This document shows, piece after piece, positions 15,456-63,971 of a DNA stretch of 64,000 bases (position 1 is the stretch's first letter; each line of letters begins with the position of its first letter). This stretch comes from a bacterium. GTDB lineage: Bacteria; Patescibacteriota; Patescibacteriia; UBA9570. The notes under the pieces are model-generated. The model was not told the origin of the DNA and made no database searches. It saw only the letters and a program-made list of their open reading frames with translations. The position numbers and the translations under genes are program-made. Where the stretch lies: assembly GCA_030698395.1 (NCBI GenBank), contig JAUYKW010000027.1, positions 3,174-67,173 of the forward strand, written 5' to 3'.

Positions 15456-15470
15456 GATGTCGTCATTATA

Positions 15471-16652: not shown

Positions 16653-16661
16653 GATATTATT

Positions 16662-23827: not shown

Positions 23828-23900
23828 AACTTCAGAACTATACCAATATTATACGTAAAAATCAACCCTTATTTATTGGATCAATACGCTATTTTGTAGC

Positions 23901-24968: not shown

Positions 24969-24989
24969 AATCTGTATTAATGCCTGGTA

Positions 24990-44143: not shown

Positions 44144-45728
44144 GCTTTTCTCGGATATAACCTAACCAATCCTCAAATACTTCTATAATTAATTTAAATG
44201 GTGCTTCGATAATAACATCTAATATAAATACAAATACATTTATCTTTGAAAAATTTACCGACAACCAATGTCCTGCTCTGATAACTGGAATTGCAAAAAA
44301 ATCTATTGTAGCGCTAATAATATTATCCTTCCTATCAACCACTACTAGATCTTTCGCTAACTGCCTTACTCTGAAGCCAAAAAAGCTTACGAGAGTTAAG
44401 AATAATACAAATAGCAACATACCAAGCCAGTTAAACCCAATCATGAATAACAATAATAAAATTCCACCGAATGTCACGAAATAAGCCAAAACGTAAAAGA
44501 GTTTAAATAGCAAACTCGTAAACCCACTTCGAGCAGCTTTTGGTTTAACCTGGTATTTAATATCCTTATCCGGATAACTATATATCAAGTCTTTTACACC
44601 CTCCTTGATTTTTTCTGTATTTTCTTTTGCAGGTATGTGTACAACTAAAGCAATGATGAATAAGAGTGTTGGATGGAAAATTACATTTATCGCAATTGGA
44701 ATGTAATTGAGATGACCAAGAATAAATAGATCATAAGGTAATTCAATTATCAAAGCCAACATCATTTTTGTAATTATAATATATATAATACTCCTAATAC
44801 TAGTTCTTCTTAATTTAGATTTTACTGTTTTATACTTTTCCGTTGCAGCTTCTTCTACTTCATCTTCTAATCTTTCTACATCTTGCAATAAGTCTAATGG
44901 ATCATCATGTTTAGAAAGAACATCAGCTAAAATAAGGAATAAAATATTTACCTTTTTCAATTGTCTAATCAACCGATCTTGTAATGGATGATTAATTTGT
45001 TTTTCAATTGTTGCCTTAACGTTTAGAACATTTTTCGCTACTCGATTTATGGTATCTTCTTTATTATCTTTCCAGTCAGGATAAAAATATTTCAACAAAT
45101 GATAACTAGTCAAATCAAAATCATATTGAGCATAGGTTCGTAATGTTGCAGAATAAATCTGTACCTTCCGCTCATCTGCAGTAATATTTTTTGATTTAAT
45201 TTCAACTCTTTCCAACATAGTAAGGTAAACAAATTCAAGCATACCTTGTTTTTGCCAAGAAAATGAAAGTAAATCTTCCAATTCGCAAGCTAACATTGTA
45301 AGAGTCCAATCAAATACCCCTTCTCGTTGTTCTTGTTCTAATGGCGGAATAGCCTTATTAAGAAACCTTGCATACTTGGTTATAACTTTTGTTACATCAT
45401 CAACGATAGATTCTGGATATGAATTATTCTGGATATACCCTCCTCTAATTAATTCTGATAGTAAGGGTCCTGAAATCAATGCTGGATCTTCCCCTGGAAT
45501 AAATTTTCTACGTAATATTCTCTCTATTGCAGATTTAATAATCAAATTCTCTTCTTGATAATCAACTGAATTTCTAATTTTCTCATAAAAAAAAGCCAAC
45601 CTACCAATAGCCTCACTTATCTTTAGCTTTGATACGTTTACACGAGCTTCCTCCTCGTGTGTTTCTTTATTGTAGCTTTTTATAAGCCTTTGTACTGCTA
45701 CTGGAACAGTGTAATGAGTATCTGACAT
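44124..45728 (-). CDS. hypothetical protein with ~300-aa soluble N-terminal domain and C-terminal polytopic membrane domain
   Basis: 534 aa. No motif I can assign. 5 to 6 predicted TM helices in the last 230 aa. 20-nt overlap with the aminotransferase gene. Confidence 0.4.
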   Translation of the reverse strand: MSDTHYTVPVAVQRLIKSYNKETHEEEARVNVSKLKISEAIGRLAFFYEKIRNSVDYQEENLIIKSAIERILRRKFIPGEDPALISGPLLSELIRGGYIQNNSYPESIVDDVTKVITKYARFLNKAIPPLEQEQREGVFDWTLTMLACELEDLLSFSWQKQGMLEFVYLTMLERVEIKSKNITADERKVQIYSATLRTYAQYDFDLTSYHLLKYFYPDWKDNKEDTINRVAKNVLNVKATIEKQINHPLQDRLIRQLKKVNILFLILADVLSKHDDPLDLLQDVERLEDEVEEAATEKYKTVKSKLRRTSIRSIIYIIITKMMLALIIELPYDLFILGHLNYIPIAINVIFHPTLLFIIALVVHIPAKENTEKIKEGVKDLIYSYPDKDIKYQVKPKAARSGFTSLLFKLFYVLAYFVTFGGILLLLFMIGFNWLGMLLFVLFLTLVSFFGFRVRQLAKDLVVVDRKDNIISATIDFFAIPVIRAGHWLSVNFSKINVFVFILDVIIEAPFKLIIEVFEDWLGYIREKREELYD

Positions 45729-45785: not shown

Positions 45786-48700
45786 TTATTGGCATTTTTT
45801 TATAATTTTATCCAGCATTTTTTTTCTAGATTCATTCCAAGATAACAACACTGGAAATACTAATAGCGTACCTAATGTAGAGAAAATTAATCCCGCAATT
45901 AAACTAGTTCCTAAGCCTCTCCAAAAAAGATCATTGAGTGTAAGTGGTAAAATACCAAATACTGTCGTAATAGAAGTTGATAAAATTGGTTTGAATCTCG
46001 CTTTTCCAGTTTCTATCATTGATTTAGTAGTAGACCACTTCTCATTCTTTGCACTTATTCTATTAAAATAATCAACAAAAACAATTGCATCATTAACCAC
46101 AATTCCAACCAAAGCGATGATGCCTAAACCGGAAACCATATTTATTGATTCGTTGATAAAACTCAAGGCTGGAAATACACCAATCATTGCTAATGGAATC
46201 GTAAATAATATTAATCCTGGTTGGATGAAAGAGTTAAATTGATACACCAAAATCAAATACACAGCTATAACAGCTATAATAAAAACTAATAATAAATTAT
46301 TATAATTTTCATTCATAGATGCTGTGAATCCGCCATATGAAACATCTTCAGCTGACAAATTAAACTCTTCTAAATGTTCTTCAGTTAAGTAATCTTTTAC
46401 TAATTGTTCTATATCTTTTGAATCTGTATCATCTGACACTCGAGCGGACACCTTCGCAACTCGTAACTCATCTAATCTTTGAATTTGTTGCAAACTTTCT
46501 ACCTCAGTAATATCTGCTACCTTATCTAAGGTTACATCTTCTAGCGGCGTAGAAAAAAGCACTAACTCACGAGCATCCGCCAAAGAATTTTTTGATTCTT
46601 CATCTAATGCAAGAATTACATCATCTGAAACTCCGTCAGTTCCTATGCTAATTTTGCCAACTTGCGTTTCACTAAAAGCCAGATTCACCATCATACTTAC
46701 ACTCGCATTATCTAGATTGTATTTCTCTAACTCTTCTTCATTAAAATCTATTTCGTAATCAGTCATCATGGCGTCACTCCAAGAATTTTTAACCTGTACA
46801 ACGCCCATTTCATTTTCTAAAAACTCAGTTAAATCCGCAGAAGCATCTGTAAGACCATCCATATCATCCCCTCGTAATTCAACAATGACATCAAAAGGAT
46901 CTGTCGGTGGTCCAATCGACACGGATTCTGCAGTAACGACTATCCCCTGTTCTGCTAGAGATTTTGTTACGCTAGCAATCTCCTCTTCTAATTTATCGCC
47001 CAGAGCATAAATATCTGGACCATCTGGTCTATTGGTTGGTTCACTAAATATAACGGATACGCTATTTTCTTCATATATAAAATAACTATGAAAATGTTCC
47101 GTGCCAACTGCTTTATCTAAAACGGAAATAGTCGCAGCCTTTTTTTCATCAGCTGAAATTTGCTTAGGAAAATCAAAATTTAATTTAACTTCCACATTAT
47201 CAACTTTTGGAAATTGTTCGAACGGTAACTCCTGGCCAAAACTTAATACACTTACAGCAATTAACGTAACGCCAGTTAATACCAACATTGCTTTAGTCCA
47301 CCACTTGGCAAAAAGATGCGTAATAATTAAGCCATAAATATCTTCAAGGAAATCAACCAATTTTTGACCATAAAATATAATTACTGGAAGCACAAACATT
47401 TTTTGCAGAACAGACAACTTTCGTTTCTTCCTTTGCTCCTTAGTTTCTTCCTTCATCAAAAAAATGGACAATACCGGTGTTATGGTAATAGCCAAGAAAA
47501 ATGATGCTATCAACATTATTATGATGGTATAAGGAATGAATCGTAAAAACGCACCAACAACTCCTGAAATATTAGCAAAAGGTATAAACACTACGAGTGT
47601 TGTTAAAGTAGCTGCAGTTACCGGCGGACCAAGCTCTTTCATAGCAGAAGCTACTGCCAACTTCTTATTTTGGCCATTTTCTATATTATGAGTTACTCCT
47701 TCAGCAATAACAATTGCATTATCTACAATAATTCCTAATACCAATAACATTGCAAACAAAGTAAGAATGTTTATCGTATATCCTAAGGCGAATAAAGCTG
47801 CTAGCGTAATCAAAAATGCTAGCGGAATAATCGTAGCCACGATAATACCAGTTCGGAAATTAATAAACAGCATCAGAACTAACAGAATCAAAAATAAACC
47901 ATACCAACCATTTGTAAGTAAGTCACCTATTTGTTTTTCAACATATTTAGAGTTATCAAATACAGGTGCTAAATCTACATTATTTGGTAATATCTTATCT
48001 GCATTAATATGTTCCGCTTCCGCTGCAATATCTTCAGAAATACTTATTGCATCACCTTTATCACCCGTATAAATTATTAACATTACCGCCGATTTTGACT
48101 CCGGTATATCATTGAGTAAATATCCAGCATGATTTACTTGATCCTCATCGTAAGTTCTCATGCTAATTGAAGCGATATCCGATAATACAACATCCTGAAT
48201 TTGGACATCTTCAAAATCTGACAATTTTGTTACATTTGATGTAAAAATTAAGTTCATGTCCTGACCATCATCTACCGCAAGAACACCACCTGGAATACTC
48301 AATAAGGTAGATTGTAATACTTGTTGAACCTCAGTCAATGTTAAACCCTTGTCCTTTAATTTCTCTTCATTTAGAGCAATGACAATTTCATTCTTTATTT
48401 CAGGCGATATATCAATTTTATCTATACCAGCTGAGGCGGTTAAAAAATGTTCTCTAACAAGCTCTGCTTCGTTCTGTAATTCCGAAATATTTGTAGTGTC
48501 ACTACCAAGCGCATAGATTAGCAAAGGGCCGATGGGATCCTCAGTCTTTACCTCAATCTTGGCATCACTAGTTAATCCAATTTCTTTTATATTCTTTTCG
48601 ATCTCGTCAATAGCCACATCTACCTGATCCACCTCTTGCATTTCAACTCCTAACCAACCACCATTATCATATGAAATTGATCTTAAATATTTTAGTCCAT

Positions 48701-48929
48701 CTAAATCCCCAATAGATTGCTCAATAGGTATTACAACTTCTTTTTCAACATCATTAGAAGCAGCTTGCGGATATGTTACATATATTGAGATGTAATTAGA
48801 TGATATTTGCGGAAAATCCTGACGATAGTTATTTGTAGCACCAAAAATACCAACTGCAATTATTGCAATAACTAATAATATTGTTGTTTTGTATCGATTA
48901 ATAAAAAAATTTGACCACTTTCCAATCAT
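45786..48929 (-). CDS. RND/MMPL-superfamily transporter (12-TM, two large extracytoplasmic loops)
   Basis: 1047 aa. Duplicated 6-TM plus large-loop architecture typical of AcrB/MMPL. No adjacent membrane-fusion or outer-membrane partner. Confidence 0.75.
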   Translation of the reverse strand: MIGKWSNFFINRYKTTILLVIAIIAVGIFGATNNYRQDFPQISSNYISIYVTYPQAASNDVEKEVVIPIEQSIGDLDGLKYLRSISYDNGGWLGVEMQEVDQVDVAIDEIEKNIKEIGLTSDAKIEVKTEDPIGPLLIYALGSDTTNISELQNEAELVREHFLTASAGIDKIDISPEIKNEIVIALNEEKLKDKGLTLTEVQQVLQSTLLSIPGGVLAVDDGQDMNLIFTSNVTKLSDFEDVQIQDVVLSDIASISMRTYDEDQVNHAGYLLNDIPESKSAVMLIIYTGDKGDAISISEDIAAEAEHINADKILPNNVDLAPVFDNSKYVEKQIGDLLTNGWYGLFLILLVLMLFINFRTGIIVATIIPLAFLITLAALFALGYTINILTLFAMLLVLGIIVDNAIVIAEGVTHNIENGQNKKLAVASAMKELGPPVTAATLTTLVVFIPFANISGVVGAFLRFIPYTIIIMLIASFFLAITITPVLSIFLMKEETKEQRKKRKLSVLQKMFVLPVIIFYGQKLVDFLEDIYGLIITHLFAKWWTKAMLVLTGVTLIAVSVLSFGQELPFEQFPKVDNVEVKLNFDFPKQISADEKKAATISVLDKAVGTEHFHSYFIYEENSVSVIFSEPTNRPDGPDIYALGDKLEEEIASVTKSLAEQGIVVTAESVSIGPPTDPFDVIVELRGDDMDGLTDASADLTEFLENEMGVVQVKNSWSDAMMTDYEIDFNEEELEKYNLDNASVSMMVNLAFSETQVGKISIGTDGVSDDVILALDEESKNSLADARELVLFSTPLEDVTLDKVADITEVESLQQIQRLDELRVAKVSARVSDDTDSKDIEQLVKDYLTEEHLEEFNLSAEDVSYGGFTASMNENYNNLLLVFIIAVIAVYLILVYQFNSFIQPGLILFTIPLAMIGVFPALSFINESINMVSGLGIIALVGIVVNDAIVFVDYFNRISAKNEKWSTTKSMIETGKARFKPILSTSITTVFGILPLTLNDLFWRGLGTSLIAGLIFSTLGTLLVFPVLLSWNESRKKMLDKIIKKCQ

Positions 48930-51294: not shown

Positions 51295-52290
51295 TCACAA
51301 CTCTCTAATTGCGTGTTCAATCCTACGAGTTGCATCTTCATATGACTCTGATTTATCTACAAAATACAAAGGCTTGCCGAATTTTATTGATACTGAGTGT
51401 CTTTTAGAGAAAATGCTCTTTTTTGAACCATAGATAAATGCTGTTCCTTTTATTCTAACCGGAATAATTGGCACATTCATTAAAGATGCCATTAAACCAG
51501 CCCCTCTCTTAAATTCATTCATTGTATCGGAATGACTAACTCTACCTTCTGGAAACAAAGCCACAGACCAACCTCTGTCTAATAGAGCCCCCGTATAATT
51601 GAAACCAGATTTAATATCTTCATTTTCTTTACGAGGAAAAGGAAATGCATTAAAAAAAAGTTGTATTGCTGGCAGATATTTTCTAAATTCTCCAAAAATA
51701 GAATCCTTTGCAGCTGCATAGGCTAATCTATTTCTTACTTTTATATTCAATGCTGCCGATAAAAAAATACCATCAAATAGACTAATGTGATTAGACATGA
51801 TTATTACCGGATATTTCACGTCCTTAAAATTATCTTGATCTGCAACTTCTAATTTCGTCACTAATCTCATTAAAGGAAAGAAAAAAAAGCTCTGGCCCAC
51901 ATATCTTATTATCCTAGCAAATAGGCTTAATGGCCATTCCTTTATTTTTAATCTTTTTTCAACAGGATTCGCTACGTTAATTAAAGCCAATAAATCAGTA
52001 ACACTTGTTTTTGCTGTAATGTTAACTTCCGGAACTGTTACACCGAACACATCTTCAATTCTAGTAACCAATTCTATTCGTAAAATAGAATCTAACTGCA
52101 AATCACGCACTAATACTGTATCAGATGCAATATCTTTAGCATTAGTATCTGTAATTGCCGCTAGTAATGCAACTAGCTGGGGCAATTGTTCATCTTTCTG
52201 CATGGATACGTTTAATGATTTCACCTTTTTTAACTTTTCTGGTAGCTGATCGAGGAAAATCTTCCTCTTTCCAAACTGACCAGTTTGCAA
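51295..52290 (-). CDS. acyl-carrier-protein domain fused to PlsC-type lysophospholipid acyltransferase
   Basis: N-terminal ~80 aa carry an ACP-like DLQLDSILRIEL (DSL phosphopantetheine site). C-terminal domain carries the HxxxxD acyltransferase motif (NHISLFDG) and PEGR-like FPEGRVS. True start may be the ATG at 52203, which reduces the overlap with the ligase gene to 11 nt. Confidence 0.65.
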   Translation of the reverse strand: MQTGQFGKRKIFLDQLPEKLKKVKSLNVSMQKDEQLPQLVALLAAITDTNAKDIASDTVLVRDLQLDSILRIELVTRIEDVFGVTVPEVNITAKTSVTDLLALINVANPVEKRLKIKEWPLSLFARIIRYVGQSFFFFPLMRLVTKLEVADQDNFKDVKYPVIIMSNHISLFDGIFLSAALNIKVRNRLAYAAAKDSIFGEFRKYLPAIQLFFNAFPFPRKENEDIKSGFNYTGALLDRGWSVALFPEGRVSHSDTMNEFKRGAGLMASLMNVPIIPVRIKGTAFIYGSKKSIFSKRHSVSIKFGKPLYFVDKSESYEDATRRIEHAIREL

Positions 52291-53752
52291 TCTGCTGATA
52301 TGACGCTAACTGCTCATTCGTTCTTTGTACCAATTCCTCTGAGGTAGAATTATTATCTTTCTCAAACAGCAATACAGCATGTATTTCTACTCGTCCAGAT
52401 TCTTTCTCTAAACCAATCACACAACTGTCTTTAATTTCCGATAACTCATTAAGTTTTTGTTCGATATCCTCAGGAAAAACATTTTGCCCCCCTGGACCAA
52501 GAATCATATATCGTTTACGCCCGTTGATATAAATATAACCATCAGAATCTATCTTTCCAAGATCGTCTGTTTTAAACCACCCATCTTCAGTAAATGCTTC
52601 TTTTGTTTTTTCTGTGTTCTTATAATATCCTTGAAAAACACTTGGGCCTTTCACTAAAATTTCACCATCATCTGCAATTTTAACTTCAACACCTGATAAG
52701 ACTTTACCAATAGAACCCCTACGATGTGCCATTAACGTATTCATTGATACTACTGGTGACGTTTCCGTGAGTCCATATCCCTGCAATAAGGTTATCCCTA
52801 ACGCATTCCACTTATCTTCAAGTTTTGGATCTAAAGGTGCGCCACCAGAAGCTACGATACGTAACTTACCACCGAATGATTTGTGCACAGAACTAAATAA
52901 CAACCTTTGTAGTAGTCTAATTTTTATGGTATTAGATATCTTCATCATTTTCTGCATTAATTCTTTTTTCCCATCTTCCTCTGCCTTAGCCTCTATCTTA
53001 GACATTACAATACTTAAAAACTCAGGAACCCCAAGCATCTTTGTAACGTGATGCTCCTTCAAAAGATCACTAATAGCAGTAGGCACGTGAGCATAAACAA
53101 TTTTTGCAGATTTATAGCAAGGCAACAAAAAACCTATTACCTGCTCATAAATATGACTGAGTGGTAAAATAGATAAAAATACATCGGTATCGTCAACAGG
53201 AATTGCTTCAGAAACAGCTATAACATTTGATATTACATTTTTATGACTCAACAACACTCCTTTTGGATCTCCCGTAGTTCCAGAAGTATACATAATGATT
53301 GCAATGTCTTCCTCAGTTGCCGTTACTGGGACAAACTCATTGTCTTTGTATGATTCAATAGTTTGCTGTAAATCTTCGACTTGATAAACTGCCAATTCAT
53401 CAGTAATATCTTCTGTAAATTTATTATTTGAAAAAATTATTTTTGCCTCAGTTTGTTTAGCAATCTTATTAATCATCTCTCCTGTACTTTGGGTATTTAA
53501 AGGAACTAATACTGAACCATTTAATAAACAGCCCCAATATACACATAGCCAATTGGGAGAATTTGGAGCCAATAACAAAACTTTATCTCCTACACCAATG
53601 TCTTGTTCTTTCAAAAATACTGCGGTACTTTTTGCCATCTTGTAAATATCCTGATATGACAGTTCAACATTTCTATAACCAACTTTAATAATGGCTGCTG
53701 TTTTATCTGGGGTTTGTTTTGCAGAATTAATTATGAAATCTGTAAGTATCAT
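52190..53752 (-). CDS. AMP-forming acyl-CoA/acyl-ACP synthetase (fatty-acid ligase)
   Basis: 520 aa. AMP-binding motif YTSGTTGDPKGV and motif II region (GYGLTETS). Confidence 0.8.
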   Translation of the reverse strand: MILTDFIINSAKQTPDKTAAIIKVGYRNVELSYQDIYKMAKSTAVFLKEQDIGVGDKVLLLAPNSPNWLCVYWGCLLNGSVLVPLNTQSTGEMINKIAKQTEAKIIFSNNKFTEDITDELAVYQVEDLQQTIESYKDNEFVPVTATEEDIAIIMYTSGTTGDPKGVLLSHKNVISNVIAVSEAIPVDDTDVFLSILPLSHIYEQVIGFLLPCYKSAKIVYAHVPTAISDLLKEHHVTKMLGVPEFLSIVMSKIEAKAEEDGKKELMQKMMKISNTIKIRLLQRLLFSSVHKSFGGKLRIVASGGAPLDPKLEDKWNALGITLLQGYGLTETSPVVSMNTLMAHRRGSIGKVLSGVEVKIADDGEILVKGPSVFQGYYKNTEKTKEAFTEDGWFKTDDLGKIDSDGYIYINGRKRYMILGPGGQNVFPEDIEQKLNELSEIKDSCVIGLEKESGRVEIHAVLLFEKDNNSTSEELVQRTNEQLASYQQIANWSVWKEEDFPRSATRKVKKGEIIKRIHAER

Positions 53753-53758
53753 AATTAA

Positions 53759-54115
53759 TTAGTCATTTAATAAAAAAACTGCTGATGCTATTGCATAGTC
53801 ACCATCATGACTAATTGATATATCATGCGATAAAATTTCCGCTTCACCTTCATATTTCAAAATAGGATGGCCAGTTTTGCTGTAACGAATTCCTATTTGT
53901 TTCCAATTCCCTGCTTCTAATCCCAGTGCTTTAATTACCGCTTCTTTGGCGGCAAAAACACCTGCCAAATGCTGTGCAGAATTTGATACAGTCAATTCTT
54001 CCACTTGAAATATCTTATCTAGAAAATCTTGTCCCGAATTTTTTTTTGATTTTTCAAATTTCTTTATGTGTACAATGTCACAACCTGTTTTGATTTTCAT
54101 GTATGTATTATGCAC
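53759..54115 (-). CDS. acpS: holo-ACP synthase (4'-phosphopantetheinyl transferase)
   Basis: 118 aa. GCDIVHIKKF (GxDxxE/H) and FAAKEAVIKALG motifs. Confidence 0.8.
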   Translation of the reverse strand: MHNTYMKIKTGCDIVHIKKFEKSKKNSGQDFLDKIFQVEELTVSNSAQHLAGVFAAKEAVIKALGLEAGNWKQIGIRYSKTGHPILKYEGEAEILSHDISISHDGDYAIASAVFLLND

Positions 54116-54181: not shown

Positions 54182-54712
54182 TTATCGTGAACTTACAATC
54201 TCACTTGTATTTTCCGATTCACATGATCTAATTCGTAAAATCCCAGTAGTTTCTTTTTGGATGGTATAGCCTGTAGTTGCTGCTGTCCAAGTTCCAAGAC
54301 CATCAGGACTAATTGGTATGTCTCCAATGTAACCTTGAGTTATAATATCATCACCTCCGGTAGTTAAATCCAAACAAACTGCTTGCGTAGGGTTTGTATC
54401 ACAGAAATCAGTTACAGTTGTAGCTGTTGCTCCACTAGCACAAGAACCAATTAAGTAAACTTCACCTGCAGTCGCGCCATTAACTGCTGAATTGTAATAT
54501 CCGCCATTATCAACCTGATCCACTTTAAGTGCAGACAAAACTTCACTGGCTTGTGCTGCTCTTTTTGAATCTCTAGAATCAGCTAATCTCGATAAAGGAT
54601 CCAAGGCAACAAATAGAATCACAGCCAAAATTGCAATAATCGCCACTACGATTAAAAGCTCGATTAATGTGAAACCTTCATTTTTTTTATTTAATTCTTG
54701 TCGAATGTTCAT
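54182..54712 (-). CDS. type IV pilin (major pilin candidate)
   Basis: 176 aa. Class III signal ...NKKNEG|FTLIELLIVVAIIAILA with Glu at +5. Two Cys near the C-terminus. Confidence 0.75.
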   Translation of the reverse strand: MNIRQELNKKNEGFTLIELLIVVAIIAILAVILFVALDPLSRLADSRDSKRAAQASEVLSALKVDQVDNGGYYNSAVNGATAGEVYLIGSCASGATATTVTDFCDTNPTQAVCLDLTTGGDDIITQGYIGDIPISPDGLGTWTAATTGYTIQKETTGILRIRSCESENTSEIVSSR

Positions 54713-54758: not shown

Positions 54759-54787
54759 ATTATATTATATTTAATAACTTACGTCAA
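54759..54787 (-). promoter_or_regulatory. sigma70-like promoter TTGACG-17-TATAAT upstream of the pilin gene
   Basis: On the minus strand, TTGACG (plus 54782-54787) is followed by a 17-nt spacer and TATAAT (plus 54759-54764), about 45 nt upstream of the pilin ATG. It overlaps the pilM stop. Confidence 0.4.
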
Positions 54788-56025
54788 TTTGAAGCATTTT
54801 TAATCACCCAGATAATAGCAGCAATTGACAAGCCACCAACAATAATTACAACTAGCATAACTAATTGCTTTTTTGTTTTTTTATCCACTCCCGAACTAAT
54901 TACTGAAATTTTAGTACCTGATCTTTCTTTTGTCTTAATCTTTTTTTCTTTTAATTCTGATTCACTCAATCTTAAATCTACTGATTGTTTTTGATATTTC
55001 GCATCAGTAGGATACATAGCTAATCCAACTGCTTCCACATACATTGATGCCTGATCCCCTTGCGGTATGCTAATTTCAGGAATCTGCCCTTCGGTTTGTC
55101 TTTGCGCTAAATAATTAGAGAGAAACTCCGTTAAACCTGGCAACTGAGCACTTCCACCTGTTAAGAATAATTCCTGCGGCATATGTTGATACAAACTATA
55201 ATATTTTTGCAGACTACTAGTAATCTTTTCTGCTAATGGTTGGACAATATTGATCATGTCAGGTGACTCCAGGCCGAATGAAATTTTTTGCGCTTCAGCT
55301 GCTTCAAACGATCCACCAATTTTTTGTGCTAATTGTGTGGTCCATACAAATCCACCAGTTAATATCGTTTCACTAATAATTGGCTGGCCTTGATAAAAAA
55401 ATGTTAACACAGTCTTTGTTCCTCCAATATCTGCAACTGCCATAGATGATTGTTGAAACTCAGAATCTCGATCTGCAAGAATTCCTCTCATAATACCTAA
55501 TACTTCTGGTTCTATGGCAAGAACCTCTATGCCAACTTCCTTAAAAAACAGTTGCCAATTTTTCACAATCTGTTTATCTACGCCAAATATAGTATAGTTT
55601 TCTGATCCGTCTGCCAGCACATTCTTTAACCATACAATATGTAAATTTTCATCTTCTATTAAAAATGTTGCTCGAGCTTGGTCACGTAAAACTTCCTCTA
55701 GTTTCTCACCAGTTAAATCCTGACCATCATTCTGAATATTATAATTTAAAGAATATACTAAGGAATCAGGAAAACTCACAACCGCCTTTCTGCTCTCTGC
55801 TGGTTGAGGCGATGCATTATCTAATAAAGATTGAAATATATTATTCAAACCTTCACGATTTTTAATTCTTCCTTGGACAATTACATCTCTAGCTAACTCT
55901 GCTCTAGCATAACTAACCATATTAAAGCTAGATCTAGCTTTACTAAGTTCAACGATTTCGATAGATGTATCAGCTATATCTATACCAAGGTATGATTTCA
56001 TTGTTTTTAGGGATTTAATTGCCAA
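54784..56025 (-). CDS. pilM: type IV pilus assembly protein PilM (actin-like ATPase) with C-terminal basic linker plus TM helix
   Basis: 413 aa. Actin/FtsA-like fold (GIDIADTSIEIVEL, DIGGTKTVL, LTGGSAQLPGL). The last ~40 aa are KKTKKQLVMLVVIIVGGLSIAAIIWV, a PilN-like membrane anchor without a periplasmic domain. Confidence 0.7.
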   Translation of the reverse strand: MAIKSLKTMKSYLGIDIADTSIEIVELSKARSSFNMVSYARAELARDVIVQGRIKNREGLNNIFQSLLDNASPQPAESRKAVVSFPDSLVYSLNYNIQNDGQDLTGEKLEEVLRDQARATFLIEDENLHIVWLKNVLADGSENYTIFGVDKQIVKNWQLFFKEVGIEVLAIEPEVLGIMRGILADRDSEFQQSSMAVADIGGTKTVLTFFYQGQPIISETILTGGFVWTTQLAQKIGGSFEAAEAQKISFGLESPDMINIVQPLAEKITSSLQKYYSLYQHMPQELFLTGGSAQLPGLTEFLSNYLAQRQTEGQIPEISIPQGDQASMYVEAVGLAMYPTDAKYQKQSVDLRLSESELKEKKIKTKERSGTKISVISSGVDKKTKKQLVMLVVIIVGGLSIAAIIWVIKNASN

Positions 56026-56414
56026 CTAGTTAAAGAAACATCTCCACCAGATACTACTGTAACAGCTTCTACTGTTGCATAATAATCACTTATATTTCCA
56101 ATAGAATTGATTGCCCGTTCAGTACCCCCATCAGACGTAACCGTTATTGTACAAGAATTACCACCTATACTCAAGACCTGAGTACCAGCTCCGACTGCCC
56201 AATTTTCATCATAGCGCAATCTGCGTAATACTTCCTCTGTACAACTATCCGCTAATACTATGGCAGATTCTGTTTCACCAGCAGAATAACTTAAGTCCAA
56301 CTCGCCAATTCCTAACAAACTAATTGATAAAGCTATTGTAGTTGTAACAGACGCAATTATAACAATTGCTATTAATGCTGCTGCTCCAGAGTGATCAAAT
56401 AAATATATTTTCAT
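56007..56414 (-). CDS. pilin-like/PilX-like small protein (no canonical E+5)
   Basis: 135 aa. Hydrophobic N-terminus MKIYLFDHSGAAALIAIVIIASV... Lies between pilin-like genes. Confidence 0.4.
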   Translation of the reverse strand: MKIYLFDHSGAAALIAIVIIASVTTTIALSISLLGIGELDLSYSAGETESAIVLADSCTEEVLRRLRYDENWAVGAGTQVLSIGGNSCTITVTSDGGTERAINSIGNISDYYATVEAVTVVSGGDVSLTSWQLNP

Positions 56415-56917
56415 CTTCTTACGGATACTGCAGTTTGATAAGTTTGACTAGTTGCATACTCAGCACTATCCGTACCACTATATTGCAATGTCATTTGAAC
56501 ACGAACATTTTCCACTCGACCATTACCTGTTAAATTTGTAAATTGTAGATTTGTTACACTCACCAGTGTGGGCATCACAATAATTGGTCCGGTAGCTCCT
56601 TCAGTAATTTGTATTTGACCATTATCAGCTGTAAGTTCTATTACTGTTGGGTTCTTTGCCACGTCAGCCATTGATAGTTCTAACACGCCGGGATCTGAAC
56701 TAAAAGTACTTCCTCCTAAATTTACTCCGGATGAACCACGAATTGCATCTGTTATGTACTCCATTGCAAATCTAGCATTAGCGTTTATTTCCTGATGCAC
56801 CGCTGCTTTGGACCTAGCCTGAAACATAGTTAAGGAAAAACTGATAAAAGCTACAACAACAGCGCTAGTAAGGGCTACGTATATCAACAACTCAATTAAA
56901 GTAAAACCTTTTTTCAT
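56411..56917 (-). CDS. minor pilin/pseudopilin
   Basis: 168 aa. MKKG|FTLIELLIYVALTSAVV class III signal. Confidence 0.7.
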   Translation of the reverse strand: MKKGFTLIELLIYVALTSAVVVAFISFSLTMFQARSKAAVHQEINANARFAMEYITDAIRGSSGVNLGGSTFSSDPGVLELSMADVAKNPTVIELTADNGQIQITEGATGPIIVMPTLVSVTNLQFTNLTGNGRVENVRVQMTLQYSGTDSAEYATSQTYQTAVSVRR

Positions 56918-56918: not shown

Positions 56919-59900
56919 TTAGCGATAATTTATTATTACATCTTCTAAAATTGGCGTAGAAATTCCATCGCCTGTAAATTCTGCACGATACTGCACCCAT
57001 TGATTACCATTTAAAGCTGTAGGAGGTAACATACCATTTTGATCTGTAAAATAAGTTCCTGCACCTGTAGCACCAAACCAAGATGTCCATGTTCCTGGAG
57101 CGCCAGTTACATCTGGTGCAGTGCGCAATTGGAATTGTATTGTACAACTAGGCGAACATGCAGGTAATACCTCTGACCATTCAATCACTTGCAAAGGTGA
57201 AGTGTCCGTCATGTCAAAAGCAGATGAAGTTAGTGTGCCTGAGGTAGTATAGGTGCCAGTGCTCGTACGGGTAAACTTCATGAATAAACCAGCATCACCA
57301 ACAGTCCAACCCTCTGTACTATCTCCTCTTGAAATGTCATTTAAATTCGTCGTAGTTGGAGATGTAAATAACGCCCAATCAATTCCATTATAAACCATTA
57401 ACGTACCTGCATCACCAACGGCCCAGCCATCATTCGTTGCTATCATATCAATACCATTCAAATTGTTAGTAGTTTGTGAAATTCTAGACACCCAACTAAT
57501 ACCATTCCAGTAAATTATCACACCACCATCGCCCATCGCCCACGCATCACTGCTACTAACCATGTAAACCGCATTAAGATTATTTCCAGTTGGAGATGTA
57601 ACTGTACTCCATGCAGAGCCATTCCACTGTACAATTGTTCCTGCAGCGCCAACAGCCCAACAATCCGAACTCGATATACAATCAACGTCATTTAGGATAT
57701 TACCCGTGGGAGATGTTGCCGTAGACCAACTAGTACCATTCCAAGTAGCTATTGTTCCAGCATCACCAACTACATAAGCTACAGAGCTATTTACAGCTTC
57801 TACACCATTTAGACCATTACCGGTTGGCGATGTAACTGTACTCCAAGTACCAGTACTATACTGCACAATCGTACCTAACGCACCTACTGCCCAACCATTA
57901 TTTACATCTATAAATGTAAGATCGTATATATTATTGCTTGTCGGTGAGGTGTCAGACGTCCAGGCAACGCCATCAAAACTAAACAACGTACCAACGTTAC
58001 CTCCGGCATATCCTACAGTAGATGAAATCATATCTACAGCATTTAAGTTTTGAGTTGTTGGATTGTTATAGTTCACCGTAAGTTCTTCCAATACTGAGGT
58101 GAAATTAGCATCGGTTGTTGTGAATGTAACAAAATACTGTAAATACCTACCGTTAGGAGAAATTATTGGTTCCCCGCTTGGATTTGAATAAGCACCAGAG
58201 TATGCAGACCAACTTGCATCTGGTACAGCCACCTCACCAGTACGGGAATCGATTGATAGATTGGTTGCTGGGTTAGTGGTGTCTTCCACCCAAGAAATCC
58301 AATCCCATGTTGCTCCTGCACTGCCACTATCTATAATTGAAGATTCAAATGTACCAGTTAAAAAATAAAGATTACTGTACTGAATAAATGTAGATTGAGC
58401 ACCTGCAGCCCATACATTGGTGCTAGCTACCATATTTACAGTATACATATTTTTTGCGGTGGGAGATGTTACAGTAGCCCAAGCAGATCCATTCCATTGT
58501 AGTAAAGCACCACCTGCACCAACGGCCCAAGCATCAGATGCATTTAGTATAAAAATGTCATACAAAGCACTACCAGTTGGCGAGGTTACAGTAGCCCAAG
58601 CAGATCCATTCCACTGAATAATTACACCATCTGCACCAACGGCCCAGCAATTGTTTGAAACGGAACAATGAACCCCATTGAGGGCGCTACCAGTTGGAGA
58701 AGTTACAGTAGCCCAGGCAGATCCATTCCATTGGATAATTACTCCACCCGCGCCAACCGCCCAGCAATCCGAAGTTGATACACAATGAACCCCATTGAGG
58801 GCGCTACCAGTTGGAGAAGTTACAGTAGCCCAGGCAGATCCATTCCATTGGATAATTACTCCACCCGCGCCAACCGCCCAACCATCGCTACTAGATACCA
58901 TTGAAACGCTACTTAAAAGACTGCCAGTAGGAGATGTTTGAGTAGCCCAGGTACTGCCATTGTAATATATTATTGTACCTGACTGACCAACTGCCCAGCA
59001 GTTAGCTGTATCGGCACAATTAACTCCCTGTAAATTACTAGTTGTCGGTGAAATTACACCAAGCCAATCCACACCATTATATTCATAAATCGTTCCTCTG
59101 TTAGCTACAGCCCAGCCATCGCTGGCATCAATCATATCCAAACTATTTACATCTTCGTTGCCTAATGATGATGTTAAATCAGACCAAACGGAACTATTGT
59201 ATCGTACCAACAAAGGTTGCTTATTTTTACCACCCACTGAATGAACATCAATAGCAGATAACGCTTCAATATCTTTAAGGGTATCTATAGCAACTGCAGG
59301 AGTAACATCATTCCAAGTAGTTCCGTTCCATTCAAGAATTTTTCCGGTTCCTGTTGTTCCGCCAGATATATATCCAGAACTAGCTGAAAGCATGGATACT
59401 CCGTATAAAATTCTGGTTGTAGGACTAGATTGAGTAAACCAAGTAGAGCCATTGTAATAAATAATTTCACCACCAGCTCCAGCTGACCAACAATTAGATG
59501 TATCATAGCAATCAATTCCATTCAACTGCTTTGTAGTTGGTGAGCTAAAAGAACTCCAACTTGTGCCATTCCATTGTAATATTTCGCCTTGCCAGCCAAC
59601 TGCCCAGCCATCTGACGCTGATACAAAATCCACTCCAAAAAGGTTTCTGGAAGTAGGCGAACTAAAACTAGTCCAAATAGCACCGTTCCATTTCAAAATT
59701 GTTCCGCCATCACCCACTATCCAACCATCACTTGCCGAAATCATTTTTATTGCGTTTAAATCGGATGTTGTACCAGAAGTAACAGTAGACCATGTGACTC
59801 CGTTCCAATGTATTATGACTCCACTTACGCCAATGGCCCATATATTATTAGCCGACACTATGTCAATTGATAATAACTCTGTAGACACTCCACTGCTAAC

Positions 59901-60788
59901 ACCGGTCCAACTGGTTCCATTCCACTTCAGAATGGCACCATTATCTCCAACAGCGTAGCCTAAAGAGGTAGATAAAAAATCCAATCCATTCATAGATTCC
60001 TGAGTTATAACATCGCCAGTTGGAGCAAATACACCCCAGTCAACAGATTGACTAATGGTTATGCTTGCATCGGCTCCAATACCATTTATCTGCGTGTCCG
60101 TTAGTGTTCCAGCGCCAAAGTCTGTATCAGATGTATGTGTAGCATTACTGCCACCACCAGGTATCCATTGATCAAGATTTCCTGACGAAACACCAGTTAA
60201 ACTAATTTGTCCAGCCCTTGTGAAGTCTATATTGCCATCACCTGAATCATACATAGTTGCATCAGACCAGATGGATTGTCCAGAACCGCCAGACCAATCC
60301 GTCTGTGTCCATTCATCTGCATCCCAATTAGTTATATAGCCAATATACTCTTCACTACTTGTTTGGCCTACTGTATTTTCCCATGAAACTGTTACCATAA
60401 TTTGCTTGCTATGAATATCCAAAGTATCACCACCTACACCGCAAGTTACAATATCAAAACTTACATTTCTACATACATCAGCAAAAGAAATTGTTCTCGT
60501 AAAATTACCGATAATTTCACTTGTACCTTCACCATCAAATACCCATTCACTCCCAGAAACAGAAACCGAAGATTGATCATATTCTACGCGATTCCAAGAA
60601 TCATCATGAATCGCGCGCACGGCCTCATAGCCTTCTCTTGCTAAAGCAGTTGCTTCTGCTCTCTGCTGTCCACCGATAGTTCCAGCAAAGCTACCTAGAA
60701 TTGTAGAAACCAAAGCGCCAGCTATAAATGCAAAAATTGCTAGAGCTAATAAAATTTCTACAACTGATTGTCCGGAACGATTTTTCAT
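56919..60788 (-). CDS. giant pilin-like protein: prepilin N-terminus plus about 20 beta-propeller blades plus two paralogous ~90-aa modules
   Basis: 1289 aa. N-terminus MKNRSG|QSVVEILLALAIFAFIAGALV is a class III signal with E+5. From about aa 250 there are ~39-aa repeats of the form WAVGxxGxIIxWNGxxWxxVTSPTxxxLNGV (two runs of 14 and 6 blades). Each run is followed by a related module ending ...LEELTVNYN or ...LEDVIINYR. Confidence 0.7.
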   Translation of the reverse strand: MKNRSGQSVVEILLALAIFAFIAGALVSTILGSFAGTIGGQQRAEATALAREGYEAVRAIHDDSWNRVEYDQSSVSVSGSEWVFDGEGTSEIIGNFTRTISFADVCRNVSFDIVTCGVGGDTLDIHSKQIMVTVSWENTVGQTSSEEYIGYITNWDADEWTQTDWSGGSGQSIWSDATMYDSGDGNIDFTRAGQISLTGVSSGNLDQWIPGGGSNATHTSDTDFGAGTLTDTQINGIGADASITISQSVDWGVFAPTGDVITQESMNGLDFLSTSLGYAVGDNGAILKWNGTSWTGVSSGVSTELLSIDIVSANNIWAIGVSGVIIHWNGVTWSTVTSGTTSDLNAIKMISASDGWIVGDGGTILKWNGAIWTSFSSPTSRNLFGVDFVSASDGWAVGWQGEILQWNGTSWSSFSSPTTKQLNGIDCYDTSNCWSAGAGGEIIYYNGSTWFTQSSPTTRILYGVSMLSASSGYISGGTTGTGKILEWNGTTWNDVTPAVAIDTLKDIEALSAIDVHSVGGKNKQPLLVRYNSSVWSDLTSSLGNEDVNSLDMIDASDGWAVANRGTIYEYNGVDWLGVISPTTSNLQGVNCADTANCWAVGQSGTIIYYNGSTWATQTSPTGSLLSSVSMVSSSDGWAVGAGGVIIQWNGSAWATVTSPTGSALNGVHCVSTSDCWAVGAGGVIIQWNGSAWATVTSPTGSALNGVHCSVSNNCWAVGADGVIIQWNGSAWATVTSPTGSALYDIFILNASDAWAVGAGGALLQWNGSAWATVTSPTAKNMYTVNMVASTNVWAAGAQSTFIQYSNLYFLTGTFESSIIDSGSAGATWDWISWVEDTTNPATNLSIDSRTGEVAVPDASWSAYSGAYSNPSGEPIISPNGRYLQYFVTFTTTDANFTSVLEELTVNYNNPTTQNLNAVDMISSTVGYAGGNVGTLFSFDGVAWTSDTSPTSNNIYDLTFIDVNNGWAVGALGTIVQYSTGTWSTVTSPTGNGLNGVEAVNSSVAYVVGDAGTIATWNGTSWSTATSPTGNILNDVDCISSSDCWAVGAAGTIVQWNGSAWSTVTSPTGNNLNAVYMVSSSDAWAMGDGGVIIYWNGISWVSRISQTTNNLNGIDMIATNDGWAVGDAGTLMVYNGIDWALFTSPTTTNLNDISRGDSTEGWTVGDAGLFMKFTRTSTGTYTTSGTLTSSAFDMTDTSPLQVIEWSEVLPACSPSCTIQFQLRTAPDVTGAPGTWTSWFGATGAGTYFTDQNGMLPPTALNGNQWVQYRAEFTGDGISTPILEDVIINYR
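58439..58906. repeat. 117-nt (39-codon) tandem repeats inside the giant pilin gene; the two central copies are near-identical
   Basis: 58673-58789 and 58790-58906 share an identical stretch of about 91 nt (ccccattgagggcgctaccagttggagaagttacagtagcccaggcagatccattccattggataattactccacccgcgccaaccgccca). Copies at about 58556 and 58439 are roughly 80 to 85% identical. They encode ...WAVGAGGVIIQWNGSAWATVTSPTGSALNGVHC... blades. Confidence 0.7.
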
Positions 60789-60789: not shown

Positions 60790-61242
60790 TTAATAAACTG
60801 CTCCCAAGCTTGTTACTGTTATATAAACTGATTGTACATCTGATGTTATCGTTACAGTTCCTGGATTATCCGGTAAAGCAGATCCTGCAGTAAAATTTAC
60901 TCCTGATAACCCAGAGATTTCAATGTTACCTTTCATTTGAGTTGTTATGTCATATGCTGTATCTCTAGTTGCATAACTAGTCCCCTGGTATAAAGTAAAG
61001 TTTGTTAAAGTAAAATTTACCCCATGTGCCGTACTGTTCTTTTTTCCTTTTGCCCGTTGATGCGCAACGCGAAGTGATTGCACAATTTCTTGTCTGGTTT
61101 GTTCTACTTGAGCTGTGTCCTGACTAGATCCATACAATCCCCCAATTCCAAATATCATTATACTTAAAATAGCAATCACAATTAATAACTCTACGAGTGT
61201 AAAGCCACGTTTATTGCTGTGTAATATTGCCAGTAATTTCAT
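60790..61242 (-). CDS. minor pilin/pseudopilin (GspH/PilV-like)
   Basis: 150 aa. ...SNKRG|FTLVELLIVIAILSIMIF class III signal. 32-nt overlap with the pilC 3' end. Confidence 0.7.
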   Translation of the reverse strand: MKLLAILHSNKRGFTLVELLIVIAILSIMIFGIGGLYGSSQDTAQVEQTRQEIVQSLRVAHQRAKGKKNSTAHGVNFTLTNFTLYQGTSYATRDTAYDITTQMKGNIEISGLSGVNFTAGSALPDNPGTVTITSDVQSVYITVTSLGAVY

Positions 61243-62323
61243 AAATTGGAGTAATGATAGATATTGCCAATGCGGCCACTACTAATCCTATAAAAATTAG
61301 CATAACAGGTTCGAGTGCTGTTGATAAAGATTTTGTAGTATTATCCAATTCATCATCAAAAAAGTCTGCAAGATAATTGAGATTTTCTTCTATCCTACCG
61401 GATTTCTCTCCTACACTCACTAATCTACTAACAATTTTTGGAAAAATATCCTCATGAAATGCTATATGTTCTGAGACCGATGCACCTCGTTTTACATGTT
61501 TTGTAATGTCTGTAATTGCTTGCTTAAAATAATAATTACTTACAGTATTATGAGTAATCTTTAAAGCATTATCAATTGTTAAACCACTTTTTAATAACAA
61601 ACTTAATGTTCTACAAAATTGAATAAGATTTGTATATTTCACAACTCCCTTAACGATGGGTATCCGTAGCACTATCCAATGAACAACTGGTTGGGAAAAT
61701 TTTTGCCTAATTACCCAAGCCAAAAAACTTCCACCAACTACAACAACTAGAAAAACTTCAATTCCATATTGATCAAAAAAGTTTGATAACCATAAAAGAA
61801 TTCTCGTACTTAAAGGTAACTCTATGCGCAATCCAGAAAAGAAACCGCTTAATTGAGGTAAAACAAAAAGTGCGAAAGAAAATCCTAATATTCCGGCAGC
61901 CCCTAAAACGGTTATTGGATAGATTAAAGCTCCCTTTATTTTATCTCTTAACTCCTTATCTTTTTTTAACTGACTAGCAATATAGGTAAAATTTTGTTCT
62001 AGTGTTCCAGACTCTTCGCCAATTTTAACCATATTTACATATAGTTCTGAAAATACTTTTGGAAATTTTGCTAAAGCATCTGATAATTTCTGTCCAGTTT
62101 CTATTGTTTTCAAAACTTTTATTAGGACTCGACGCATTTTTCCTGAAGATTGATCTACAGTAATTCTAATAGTTTCAACAATCGGAATACCAGAAGCAAG
62201 CATTATTGCACAATATTTTGCAAACAACATCTTTTGCTCTATATTGATTTTACCAATAGTTACTTCATTTTGAAATAAATTTTTTTCAACTAGCGTATCT
62301 TGTTTATTTTTTTTTATAGCCAT
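61211..62323 (-). CDS. pilC: type IV pilus/T2SS platform protein PilC (GspF family)
   Basis: 370 aa. Duplicated GspF cytoplasmic domains and 3 TM segments. Confidence 0.85.
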   Translation of the reverse strand: MAIKKNKQDTLVEKNLFQNEVTIGKINIEQKMLFAKYCAIMLASGIPIVETIRITVDQSSGKMRRVLIKVLKTIETGQKLSDALAKFPKVFSELYVNMVKIGEESGTLEQNFTYIASQLKKDKELRDKIKGALIYPITVLGAAGILGFSFALFVLPQLSGFFSGLRIELPLSTRILLWLSNFFDQYGIEVFLVVVVGGSFLAWVIRQKFSQPVVHWIVLRIPIVKGVVKYTNLIQFCRTLSLLLKSGLTIDNALKITHNTVSNYYFKQAITDITKHVKRGASVSEHIAFHEDIFPKIVSRLVSVGEKSGRIEENLNYLADFFDDELDNTTKSLSTALEPVMLIFIGLVVAALAISIITPIYEITGNITQQ

Positions 62324-62324: not shown

Positions 62325-63971
62325 TTATTGGGTTACGCGTAATACTTCTTTTAATGTTGTAGATCCATTTAAAGCTTTTTGCACGCCGTCATCCAACATT
62401 GTGCTCATACCATTACGACGAGCTGCATTCATTATTTTTGATGAGTCTGCTCTCTCCACTACCAAACTTCTTATCTCATCAGTCATTTCTAAAATTTCAA
62501 ATACGCCGACTCTACCCCGATAGCCAGTATTCACACAATTATTACACCCAGCTCCATAAAATGCAGACATAGTTGCTGGATCTTCAATTCCTGCTTTCTT
62601 TAAAGTTTCTAATAACTTAGGTTGATGATTAATGAAGTCAATCGTCTCTTGTAATGGTGGTCCTGAACGAATACAAGAAGAACAAATCTTCCGCAATAAA
62701 CGTTGTGCAATAATGATCCGCACTGTTGAAGCAACTAAAAATGGCTCTACTCCCATATCTATCAATCTTGGTATGGCAGTTGCTGCATCATTTGTATGTA
62801 ATGTAGAGAGTACGAGGTGTCCAGTTAAAGCCGAATTAACAGCAATGCCAGCTGTCTCCTCATCTCTTATTTCACCAACCATCATGATGTCTGGATCTTG
62901 TCGTAAAAGAGATCTTAACCCATCAGCGAAAGTAAGATTTGTTTTTGTGTTGACTTGCACTTGGGTTACACCTTCAATATCATATTCAACTGGATCTTCA
63001 ACTGTTGAAATGTTAACTTCCCGCCGATTTAAAATTTTTAAAATTGCATATAATGATGTAGTTTTTCCACATCCTGTTGGTCCGGTAGATAAAATCATGC
63101 CATGTGGATTTGCAATTGCATCTCGTACGATCTCCATATGTTCCTCACCCATGCCTAAATTTTCCAATGTATATGATCTAGCAACATCACTTAAAATACG
63201 CATAACAGTTTTTTCACCGGATGTGCTAGGCAAGATTGAAACTCTAATATCTATCGTTGTATCACCGTCAACTTCAAATTGTAATTTACCATCTTGAGCA
63301 GATCTATGCTCATCGGTTCTTAATTTTGCTAATATTTTTATCCTAGTGGTCAACAGCTCTAATACATTCTTATTCATGCGGACAATATCATGTAAAATAC
63401 CATCAACTCTTAATCTAATAACTACTTCATCATCAAATGGTTCTACGTGAATATCAGATGCTTTATTATGATAAGCATATGAAATAATTTCATCTACGAT
63501 CTCTACAATCAGATCTTCATTTTCCAGTAACGCATCGGGATTTGCTAAAACGCTTTTGATGCTTTCTCCAATACTACTTTCATAAGATCCGGTAGCCATC
63601 TCAATATCCACTTTGGAAGCGAAGAACAAATCCGCATGTAAACCAGTTTTCTTTTCTACCATACGAACAATCTCCATATCGGTAGGGTCGGCCATAGCAA
63701 TTTTTATACTAGCATCTGTCATTTCATAAGCAATTACCTGTCGTTTTTTTGCTACAAATTCCGGTATTACAGACAATGCCTCTTTAGAAATAGTATGCTG
63801 TGATAAGTTAACAAATCTATAACCATAAAATTCAGCAATTAACTTACCTAACTGTGCATCTGTCAGCCACCCTTTGTTAGTTATGAATTCCCCAATATCT
63901 AAGTCTGAATTTTTTTGAACAGCTAAAGTTATCTCCGCGTACTGTACATCTGTAATGAATCCAGGCTCAAC
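62325..63971 (-). CDS. pilB: type IV pilus assembly ATPase PilB (GspE family)
   Basis: Walker A GPTGCGKTT, Asp box, His box, and a CxxC...CxxC tetracysteine (CSSC...CNNC). The track ORF starts at an internal TTG (63776). The same frame is open up to the TAG at 63972-63974, and the extra 65 aa (LSLEFITDVQYAEITLAVQKNSDLDIGEFITNKGWLTDAQLGKLIAEFYGYRFVNLSQ...) are a typical GspE N-terminal domain. Start is probably the TTG at 63969-63971, giving about 549 aa. Confidence 0.8.
   Translation of the reverse strand, partial: VEPGFITDVQYAEITLAVQKNSDLDIGEFITNKGWLTDAQLGKLIAEFYGYRFVNLSQHTISKEALSVIPEFVAKKRQVIAYEMTDASIKIAMADPTDMEIVRMVEKKTGLHADLFFASKVDIEMATGSYESSIGESIKSVLANPDALLENEDLIVEIVDEIISYAYHNKASDIHVEPFDDEVVIRLRVDGILHDIVRMNKNVLELLTTRIKILAKLRTDEHRSAQDGKLQFEVDGDTTIDIRVSILPSTSGEKTVMRILSDVARSYTLENLGMGEEHMEIVRDAIANPHGMILSTGPTGCGKTTSLYAILKILNRREVNISTVEDPVEYDIEGVTQVQVNTKTNLTFADGLRSLLRQDPDIMMVGEIRDEETAGIAVNSALTGHLVLSTLHTNDAATAIPRLIDMGVEPFLVASTVRIIIAQRLLRKICSSCIRSGPPLQETIDFINHQPKLLETLKKAGIEDPATMSAFYGAGCNNCVNTGYRGRVGVFEILEMTDEIRSLVVERADSSKIMNAARRNGMSTMLDDGVQKALNGSTTLKEVLRVTQ

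Follow-up and report, generated by a model that had tools for sequence, protein, structure and literature searches.

In a 64,000-nucleotide (nt) stretch of bacterial DNA, hereafter the window (contig JAUYKW010000027.1 of assembly GCA_030698395.1), the minus strand at positions 56919-60788 carries a 3870-nt open reading frame (ORF) which, from the ORF list and its translation, encodes a giant protein of 1289 amino acids. Its sequence and genomic setting point to a modular minor pilin of a type IV pilus that bears 21 beta-propeller blade units. Some of these units are near-identical at the DNA level, and we consider that they probably originated in recent, copy-number-neutral, short-tract gene conversion within one seven-bladed propeller of the pilin.

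Direct comparison of the sequence with itself at an offset of 117 nt reveals an exact run of 99 nt, 58665-58763 being identical to 58782-58880. On the minus strand, like the other features described below, the first copy (58782-58880; amino acids 637-669; WAVGAGGVIIQWNGSAWATVTSPTGSALNGVHC) covers strands B-D of blade 10 and the start of blade 11, and the second (58665-58763; amino acids 676-708) covers strands B-D of blade 11 and the start of blade 12, strand positions being those assigned by DSSP on an AlphaFold 2 (AF2) model. Between the copies lies a non-identical spacer of 18 nt (58764-58781; amino acids 670-675, VSTSDC) that encodes the strand A/B hairpin of blade 11. The identity run is thus shorter than the 117-nt period, and its edges are sharp. 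When the 45 differences in the 234-nt offset alignment were shuffled 200,000 times, not one run of at least 99 nt resulted (the longest was 62 nt on shuffling by site and 85 nt by codon), so the observed identity is far above chance.

A first-pass annotation, made from the sequence alone, had described two adjacent near-identical 117-nt units identical over about 91 nt, flanked by more diverged in-frame copies of the same period that each encode one blade. That description agrees with what is found here: of the 117 positions in units 58673-58789 and 58790-58906, 104 agree, among them all of the first 91; the flanking units show 74% and 55-69% identity; and each unit, read on the minus strand of the ORF, yields a 39-residue blade. 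Tandem Repeats Finder likewise detects repeats of period 117 at 58570-58880 (2.7 copies, 90% matches) and, in a second call, at 58462-58951 (4.2 copies, 78% matches). An older, shorter identity tract (58468-58613) links blades 12 and 13, with 29 nt exactly shared between 58585-58613 and 58468-58496. The four units originally noticed correspond to blades 10-13 of the protein, equivalent to blades 3-6 of its second propeller, and the 99-nt repeat touches blades 3-5 of that propeller. The complete array is larger than had been described, consisting of 14 contiguous units (matches at 58377-60005) and seven further ones (57273-58058) according to a blade hidden Markov model (HMM) scan.

The structure of the repeat is best seen when each 39-codon blade is divided into an N part (codons 1-10), a V part (codons 11-16) and a C part (codons 17-39). 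According to the codon listing, blades 10 and 11 differ at 23 of the 48 nt of their combined N and V parts and at none of the 69 nt of their C parts. Blades 11 and 12, conversely, are identical over the 30 nt of their N parts; their V parts differ at 12 of 18 nt, and their C parts carry 10 nt differences in 23 codons, nine codons being altered synonymously and one non-synonymously. Between the blade 11 spacer, which is its V part, and that of blade 12 (58647-58664, SVSNNC) 12 of 18 nt are different; against the blade 10 spacer (58881-58898) the figure is 7 of 18. The 99-nt tract is therefore a single contiguous piece, composed of the C part of one blade and the N part of the next, which is present in two neighbouring registers, and both of its flanks are diverged at or near the level of old paralogues. 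Genealogies drawn from the two parts are incongruent: by C part, blade 10 equals blade 11 and blades 12 and 13 share synonymous codons unlike those of blades 10 and 11, while by N part blade 11 equals blade 12. Conservation of the protein cannot account for the DNA identity, since 30-62% of the codons for shared residues differ synonymously between paralogous blades.

Relative to a C-x5-C pair, the spacer starts behind the first Cys and has the second as its last residue, so that the 18 non-identical nt coincide exactly with the x5-C stretch. Such pairs surround the strand A/B hairpin in blades 5, 9, 11, 12 and 18 (amino acids approximately 427-433, 591-597, 669-675, 708-714 and 1037-1043), where they possibly form a disulfide staple. 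The idea that the spacer is a dedicated hypervariable loop spared by conversion was rejected, entropies over 1714 blades showing columns 11-16 to be no more variable than other surface columns; the ends of the tract are probably arbitrary.

The number and arrangement of blades were determined by a six-frame scan of the window with a blade HMM built from the clear repeats. There are 21 units of 39 amino acids, 14 of them contiguous (58344-60005, amino acids 262-815) and seven more (amino acids 911-1183) following an insert of about 95 residues. The weakest-scoring, degenerate units are numbers 7, 14 and 21, where closing blades are expected, and the 21 blades are read as three seven-bladed Ycf48-like beta-propellers in a 7+7+7 arrangement. 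Propellers 1 and 2 share the contiguous run, propeller 2 (blades 8-14, 58344-59162, amino acids 543-815) being the one that carries the near-identical repeats, and propeller 3 comprises blades 15-21 (57240-58058). In full, the protein consists of a prepilin N-terminus, a pilin or N-terminal region of about 260 residues, 14 blades, a beta-sandwich of about 95 residues, seven blades and a C-terminal beta-sandwich of about 105 residues. The sandwich between propellers 2 and 3 (58059-58343) occupies the 95-residue gap between the blade runs and is all-beta in the model. It is homologous to the C-terminal one (56922-57239), the two thus following propellers 2 and 3, respectively, and the family consensus of the domain is SGTFxS...RYxQYR...TPxLxxVxxxY. 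Most homologues have such a sandwich after propeller 1 also; the present protein and its four closest homologues (P0001-P0004) do not.

An AF2 model of amino acids 200-1289 (1090 residues) has a mean predicted local distance difference test score (pLDDT) of 90.8. The whole model retrieved multi-propeller proteins with Foldseek (GH74 xyloglucanases, Aip1, DDB1), only at low template modelling (TM) scores because domain orientations differ, and propeller 2 was therefore modelled alone for this comparison. Residues 538-820 (blades 8-14; pLDDT 94.8, predicted TM score 0.90) model as a closed Ycf48-like ring in which each of the seven blades has four strands (7 x 4 as assigned by DSSP). In the PDB the predicted ring is best matched by Ycf48 (codes 5OJR and 2XBG), with a TM score of 0.77, and by 7BIG, an entry titled as a 7-bladed designer protein, with one of 0.84. 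A PDB sequence search with propeller 2 similarly returned Ycf48 chains at E=5e-6, and Pfam PSII_BNR (PF14870) matches six stretches of the giant protein (63.4 bits, cut-off 27). Blades 10-13 are mutually 61-84% identical, a level that qualifies as recently amplified, or highly repetitive, and that only these four of the seven blades of propeller 2 reach. Blade 18 resembles them although it belongs to propeller 3, its protein identity to blades 10-12 being 69-74%. For comparison, the median identity across all 21 blades is 39%.

Comparison with related proteins places the event in a wider setting. The family set contained 120 homologues, blades being counted in 114 proteins, and the named homologues come from Patescibacteria or Candidatus Uhrbacteria, the host genome itself being probably one of the Patescibacteria. 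The closest homologue found in a protein database search is 47% identical, no record of the exact giant protein was found in the protein database, and scans of genome and metagenome contigs for relatives gave nothing above 38% identity. Total blade numbers in the family come in sevens (7, 14, 21 and 28): 72 of the 114 bladed proteins have a multiple of seven, and 89 have either a multiple of seven or one fewer, the one-short counts fitting missed degenerate closing blades. Among the top homologues the runs are [7,7], [7,7,7], [14,7], [14,7,7] or [2,7,5,7], with domains of about 95 residues between them, and the 14+7 layout is common to the present protein and P0001-P0004. The first-pass annotation had proposed that orthologues be compared for variation in copy number; at family level the comparison speaks against such variation, blade runs being quantised in sevens and not free to vary. 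Since the family runs in sevens and the four closest homologues share the 14+7 layout, we would argue that gains and losses of single blades do not persist and that the assembly shows the correct number of copies. A variant pattern, [2,7,5,(7)], with gaps of about 45 and 95 residues, occurs in seven homologues (P0007, P0008, P0010, P0021, P0022, P0024 and P0047), and suggests one seven-bladed propeller, together with its beta-sandwich, nested in another after the second blade of the latter.

Blades 10-13 are 44-51% identical to their positional counterparts in P0001 and 31-42% identical to those in P0003; blades 3, 4, 8, 14, 15, 20 and 21 still pair best with their positional partners in P0001. 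The DNA of other homologues contains exact tracts of its own. In P0035 tracts of 164, 159 and 130 nt are shared by blades 987-1221 nt apart, in different propellers, in P0020 one of 339 nt, likewise joining non-adjacent blades of different propellers, occurs at an offset of 477, and P0014 and P0034 contain tracts of 50-74 nt. Homogenisation is both lineage-specific and recurrent. Tracts between non-adjacent blades cannot be the product of slippage; they fit homologous exchange among blade units that leaves the total count unchanged.

The history we favour would begin with neighbouring blade-coding repeats misaligning by one unit. Short-tract homologous recombination, through non-reciprocal gene conversion or an equivalent copy-number-neutral exchange, would then have transferred to the neighbouring register 99 nt that encode strands B-D of one blade and the beginning of the following one, leaving the spacer hairpin and the remaining flanking sequence untouched. 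Sequence would thereby be homogenised at an unchanged number of blades and, we infer, ring closure would hold that number at seven per propeller. The tract with its edges, the blade count, the fold and the operon are what the analysis shows directly, whereas conversion as the mechanism, the role in adhesion and the selective constraint are conclusions drawn beyond it. Several points weigh against this reading. A duplication with a compensating 117-nt deletion in another register yields the same sequence, although that route needs two events with particular endpoints and a single non-reciprocal transfer is the simplest history. With the closest relative only 47% identical, neither the event nor the fixed copy number is directly observed. 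The two nearest homologues, P0001 and P0003, contain no exact tract of at least 24 nt, which means that such exchange does not occur universally. Repeat copies that differ slightly can be merged by metagenome assemblers, and exact tracts here and in the metagenome-assembled genomes of the homologues alike would then appear longer than they are. In work from the Lupas laboratory, designed and natural propellers of identical blades reportedly tolerate differing blade numbers, so a variant of six or eight blades is not strictly impossible. Finally, the role of the protein as an adhesin is assigned by analogy only.

How the repeat arose bears on the proposal, made at first sight of it, that one blade was recently duplicated in tandem and in frame, through slippage or unequal crossing-over, at a locus actively expanding and contracting so as to produce size or antigenic variation. 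The repeats are certainly in frame, and a perfect 99-nt direct repeat with a spacing of 18 nt is, as is well established, suited to both RecA-dependent and RecA-independent deletion and duplication; as a substrate for one-unit changes it must give rise to such variants at some low rate. There is also the precedent of Helicobacter cagY, for which in-frame repeat recombination leading to variant surface proteins is documented (PMC2194252). Gain of one unit, though, would leave at least 117 identical nt, and here there are 99, the remaining 18 being so diverged that 12 differ from the next spacer; a simple tandem duplication is not what is seen. Nor does such a gain sit easily with exactly 7+7+7 blades, degenerate closing blades at 7, 14 and 21, a second propeller that closes in the model as a seven-bladed ring, the 14+7 layout of the four closest homologues and a family quantised in sevens. 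What survives of the proposal is a recent recombination event and, as regards a hotspot for blade number, a mutational substrate; one-blade duplication as the origin of a 99-nt tract with sharp edges we regard as unlikely, and retained variation in number runs counter to the sevens in this protein and its homologues. An artefact of assembly, in which differing copies were merged to one consensus by bubble popping or polishing, or identical units were collapsed from a higher true number, is also unlikely in our estimation. The repeat is of short-read size, the sequences compared all appear to be metagenome-derived, and Pereira & Lupas (PMC9218822) flagged the same problem for highly repetitive propellers, yet the layout is X-Y1-X-Y2, with distinct 18-nt spacers that give a unique path through the assembly graph. 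A collapsed unit, moreover, would be at odds with the count of 21 blades, with the 14+7 layout that P0001-P0004 also have and with the closed propeller, modelled at high confidence.

Two further explanations assign the identity to selection or to a dedicated system. Ancient paralogous blades might have been held identical in DNA, without recent recombination, by selection, for instance on an embedded nucleic-acid signal or on extreme codon preference, and the motif WAVGxxGxIxxWNGSxW is indeed strongly conserved over all blades. This we give almost no credence: the synonymous divergence of blades 12, 13 and 18 effectively refutes it, blade 12 encoding nearly the same peptide with nine synonymous changes, other same-residue pairs differing to the extent already described, and the third-position guanine-plus-cytosine content (GC3) of the gene being ordinary for the genome. 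Programmed shuffling, by contrast, would entail frequent intragenic conversion among blade 'cassettes' that reshuffles the binding surfaces of an adhesin. Mosaic exact tracts have appeared independently in several homologues, between propellers as well, and analogy with PilX2 (PMC11623550) makes it probable that the protein serves as a host-contact adhesin. The nearest homologues, on the other hand, lack such tracts, spacer columns show no excess variability over the 1714 blades, no recombinase or reverse transcriptase was noticed near the gene, and silent blade cassettes of the pilS donor kind were absent from the window: scanning all six frames with the blade HMM, together with fuzzy matching of the tract, recovered only the giant gene itself and one weak match. 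Programming of this kind strikes us as improbable. The weak match, at 13332-14462, is a stand-alone propeller protein of 376 amino acids (Sortilin-Vps10/PSII_BNR/BNR) unrelated to the pilus operon. A diversity-generating retroelement was also discarded as a candidate, the spacer mismatches being of all base types and the scanned neighbours, though no dedicated search was made, including no reverse transcriptase. A broader speculation, to which we likewise attach little probability, is that in the triple-propeller pilins of Patescibacteria recurrent conversion among 14-28 blades, within and between propellers, reshuffles the surface of a tip adhesin at constant blade number. Were it true, blade conversion would be an intragenic analogue of pilE/pilS-type variation, tuning host range in episymbionts.

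The first-pass annotation had spoken of a giant pilin gene, and both its N-terminus and its surroundings mark the gene as pilin-like. The translation begins with a class III (prepilin) signal (60711-60788; MKNRSG/QSVVEILLALAIFAFIAG, with Gly at -1 and Glu at +5), that is, a short basic leader ending in Gly, then Glu at +5 and a hydrophobic helix of about 20 residues (MKNRSG/QSVVEILLALAIFAFIAGALV). The prepilin motif itself is G/QSVVE, and G-x-S-x-x-E is kept in the alignment consensus of 39 family members. Pfam N_methyl (PF07963) scores 18.0 bits on the giant protein, below its cut-off of 21.2, and NCBIfam TIGR02532 gives no match at E<=0.01; several homologues carry PF07963 or the NCBI name of prepilin-type N-terminal cleavage/methylation protein.

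The gene lies among pilus assembly genes and other pilins. In the order of the minus strand there are genes for a PilB-type assembly ATPase (62325-63776; Pfam T2SSE, E=6e-126), a PilC-type platform protein (61211-62323; Pfam T2SSF, E=2.4e-56) and, directly upstream of the giant gene, a small pilin of 150 amino acids (60790-61242; Pfam N_methyl; TIGR02532 31 bits, above cut-off). Directly downstream is a pilin-like protein of 168 amino acids (56411-56917; Pfam N_methyl, 23.9 bits), followed by an ORF of 135 amino acids, a PilM-type protein (54784-56025; Pfam PilM_2, E=3.9e-23) and a pilin of 176 amino acids that is a candidate major pilin (54182-54712; Pfam N_methyl; TIGR02532 31.5 bits). This order is kept at five homologue loci of other assemblies (L001, L043, L044, L046 and L047). 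At all five the gene adjoining pilB on its upstream side encodes a response regulator, and sensor kinases often come before it; the present window stops at 64000, just upstream of pilB.

Between 56001 and 60000 the GC content of the window rises to 40-42%, from 32-37% elsewhere, and the giant gene itself has 42%. The rise results from a high value at second codon positions (GC2 of 0.54), reflecting an amino-acid composition in which the blades are rich in Gly, Ala, Ser, Thr and Trp. GC3, at 0.27, is at genome level, and the gene therefore looks native to the genome so far as composition can indicate. GC-biased conversion and foreign origin were rejected as causes of the 56-60 kb bump, the excess residing in GC2 and GC3 being ordinary.

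Elsewhere in the window, the downstream neighbours of the pilus genes (51295-54115) encode a 4'-phosphopantetheinyl transferase (53759-54115), an AMP-binding enzyme (52190-53752) and a carrier-protein-acyltransferase fusion (51295-52290), a trio whose annotations suggest an acyl-activation and transfer module. Further along is an AcrB/RND-family transporter of 1047 amino acids (45786-48929; Pfam ACR_tran, E=8e-144); the genome that encodes it has its pilin homologues in Patescibacteria, and the adjacent ORF of 534 amino acids (44124-45728) has no Pfam match. The region 14469-26438 contains a long run of glycosyltransferases (GT1, GT2 and GT4), a polysaccharide flippase, a DUF4012 protein and MreB, and its predicted content is consistent with a cell-envelope polysaccharide locus.

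The present example indicates that a near-perfect repeat within the gene for a surface protein need not be a copy-number switch: the 7+7+7 arithmetic, together with the form of the identity tract, speaks for homogenisation and not for expansion. It also brings to light a conserved family of very large pilins with one to four Ycf48-like propellers, probably situated in Patescibacteria pilus operons. These giant pilins are plausible host-contact adhesins in these organisms, and for work on propeller evolution they offer natural examples of blade-level exchange.

Several known systems invite comparison. The PilY1/PilC tip adhesins of type IVa pili also contain a seven-bladed propeller and are presumed to be located at the tip, together with minor pilins; PilY1 itself does not belong to the pilins, and its propeller is of another family (IPR008707). 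The giant protein is similarly pilus-associated, with seven-bladed propellers, but Pfam and NCBIfam scans of it gave no PilY1-family match. With the photosystem II assembly factor Ycf48/HCF136 (2XBG, 5OJR) it shares the seven-bladed fold, blades of about 39 residues and detectable sequence similarity. Only fold and repeat type are in common, however, and here three tandem propellers are fused to a pilin. A functional orthologue of Ycf48 was rejected, the match to NCBIfam NF010237 reaching 66.9 bits against a cut-off of 326 and the gene lying in a pilus operon without photosynthesis context.

Closer in organisation are the modular minor pilins, which are widespread and diverse, with examples in candidate phyla, and which include PilB and PilC of S. 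sanguinis (PMC8179133). In the Saccharibacterium TM7x, efficient binding to the host requires the minor pilin PilX2, which bears a heptabladed propeller (PMC11623550). The giant protein resembles these pilins in having a bulky module grafted onto an N-terminal pilin module and in being encoded among minor pilins beside PilB, PilC and PilM, and PilX2 in particular in being a Patescibacteria pilin with a seven-bladed propeller; by analogy it is probably a tip adhesin. PilX2 differs in its single propeller of RCC1 repeats, whereas the giant pilin has three Ycf48/BNR-like propellers with beta-sandwiches and a recognisable G/QxxxE. As regards the repeats, H. pylori cagY likewise has many direct DNA repeats, with in-frame products, in a gene for a surface-exposed protein. 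In cagY (PMC2194252), repeat number and arrangement are reported to vary among isolates, whereas the number in the giant pilin appears constrained to sevens.

It is with the highly repetitive propellers, among them the Asp-box/PSII-like lineage, that the repeats have most in common. Blades in these are amplified and homogenised singly in a process continuing in all propeller lineages (Pereira & Lupas 2022, PMC9218822). There, as here, adjacent blades are near-identical in DNA while the rest are diverged, the number is one with which a propeller can close, the events are confined to single lineages and arise independently among homologues, and the same caveat about assembly applies. The differences are that in the giant pilin about 2.5 blades share the exact tract, that the tract is shorter than the blade unit and that the propellers are carried on a type IV pilin; a tract shorter than the unit argues for partial conversion in an old seven-bladed ring and not for fresh amplification of a whole propeller. 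The giant pilin thus belongs to both known kinds, being at once a modular minor pilin and a highly repetitive beta-propeller.

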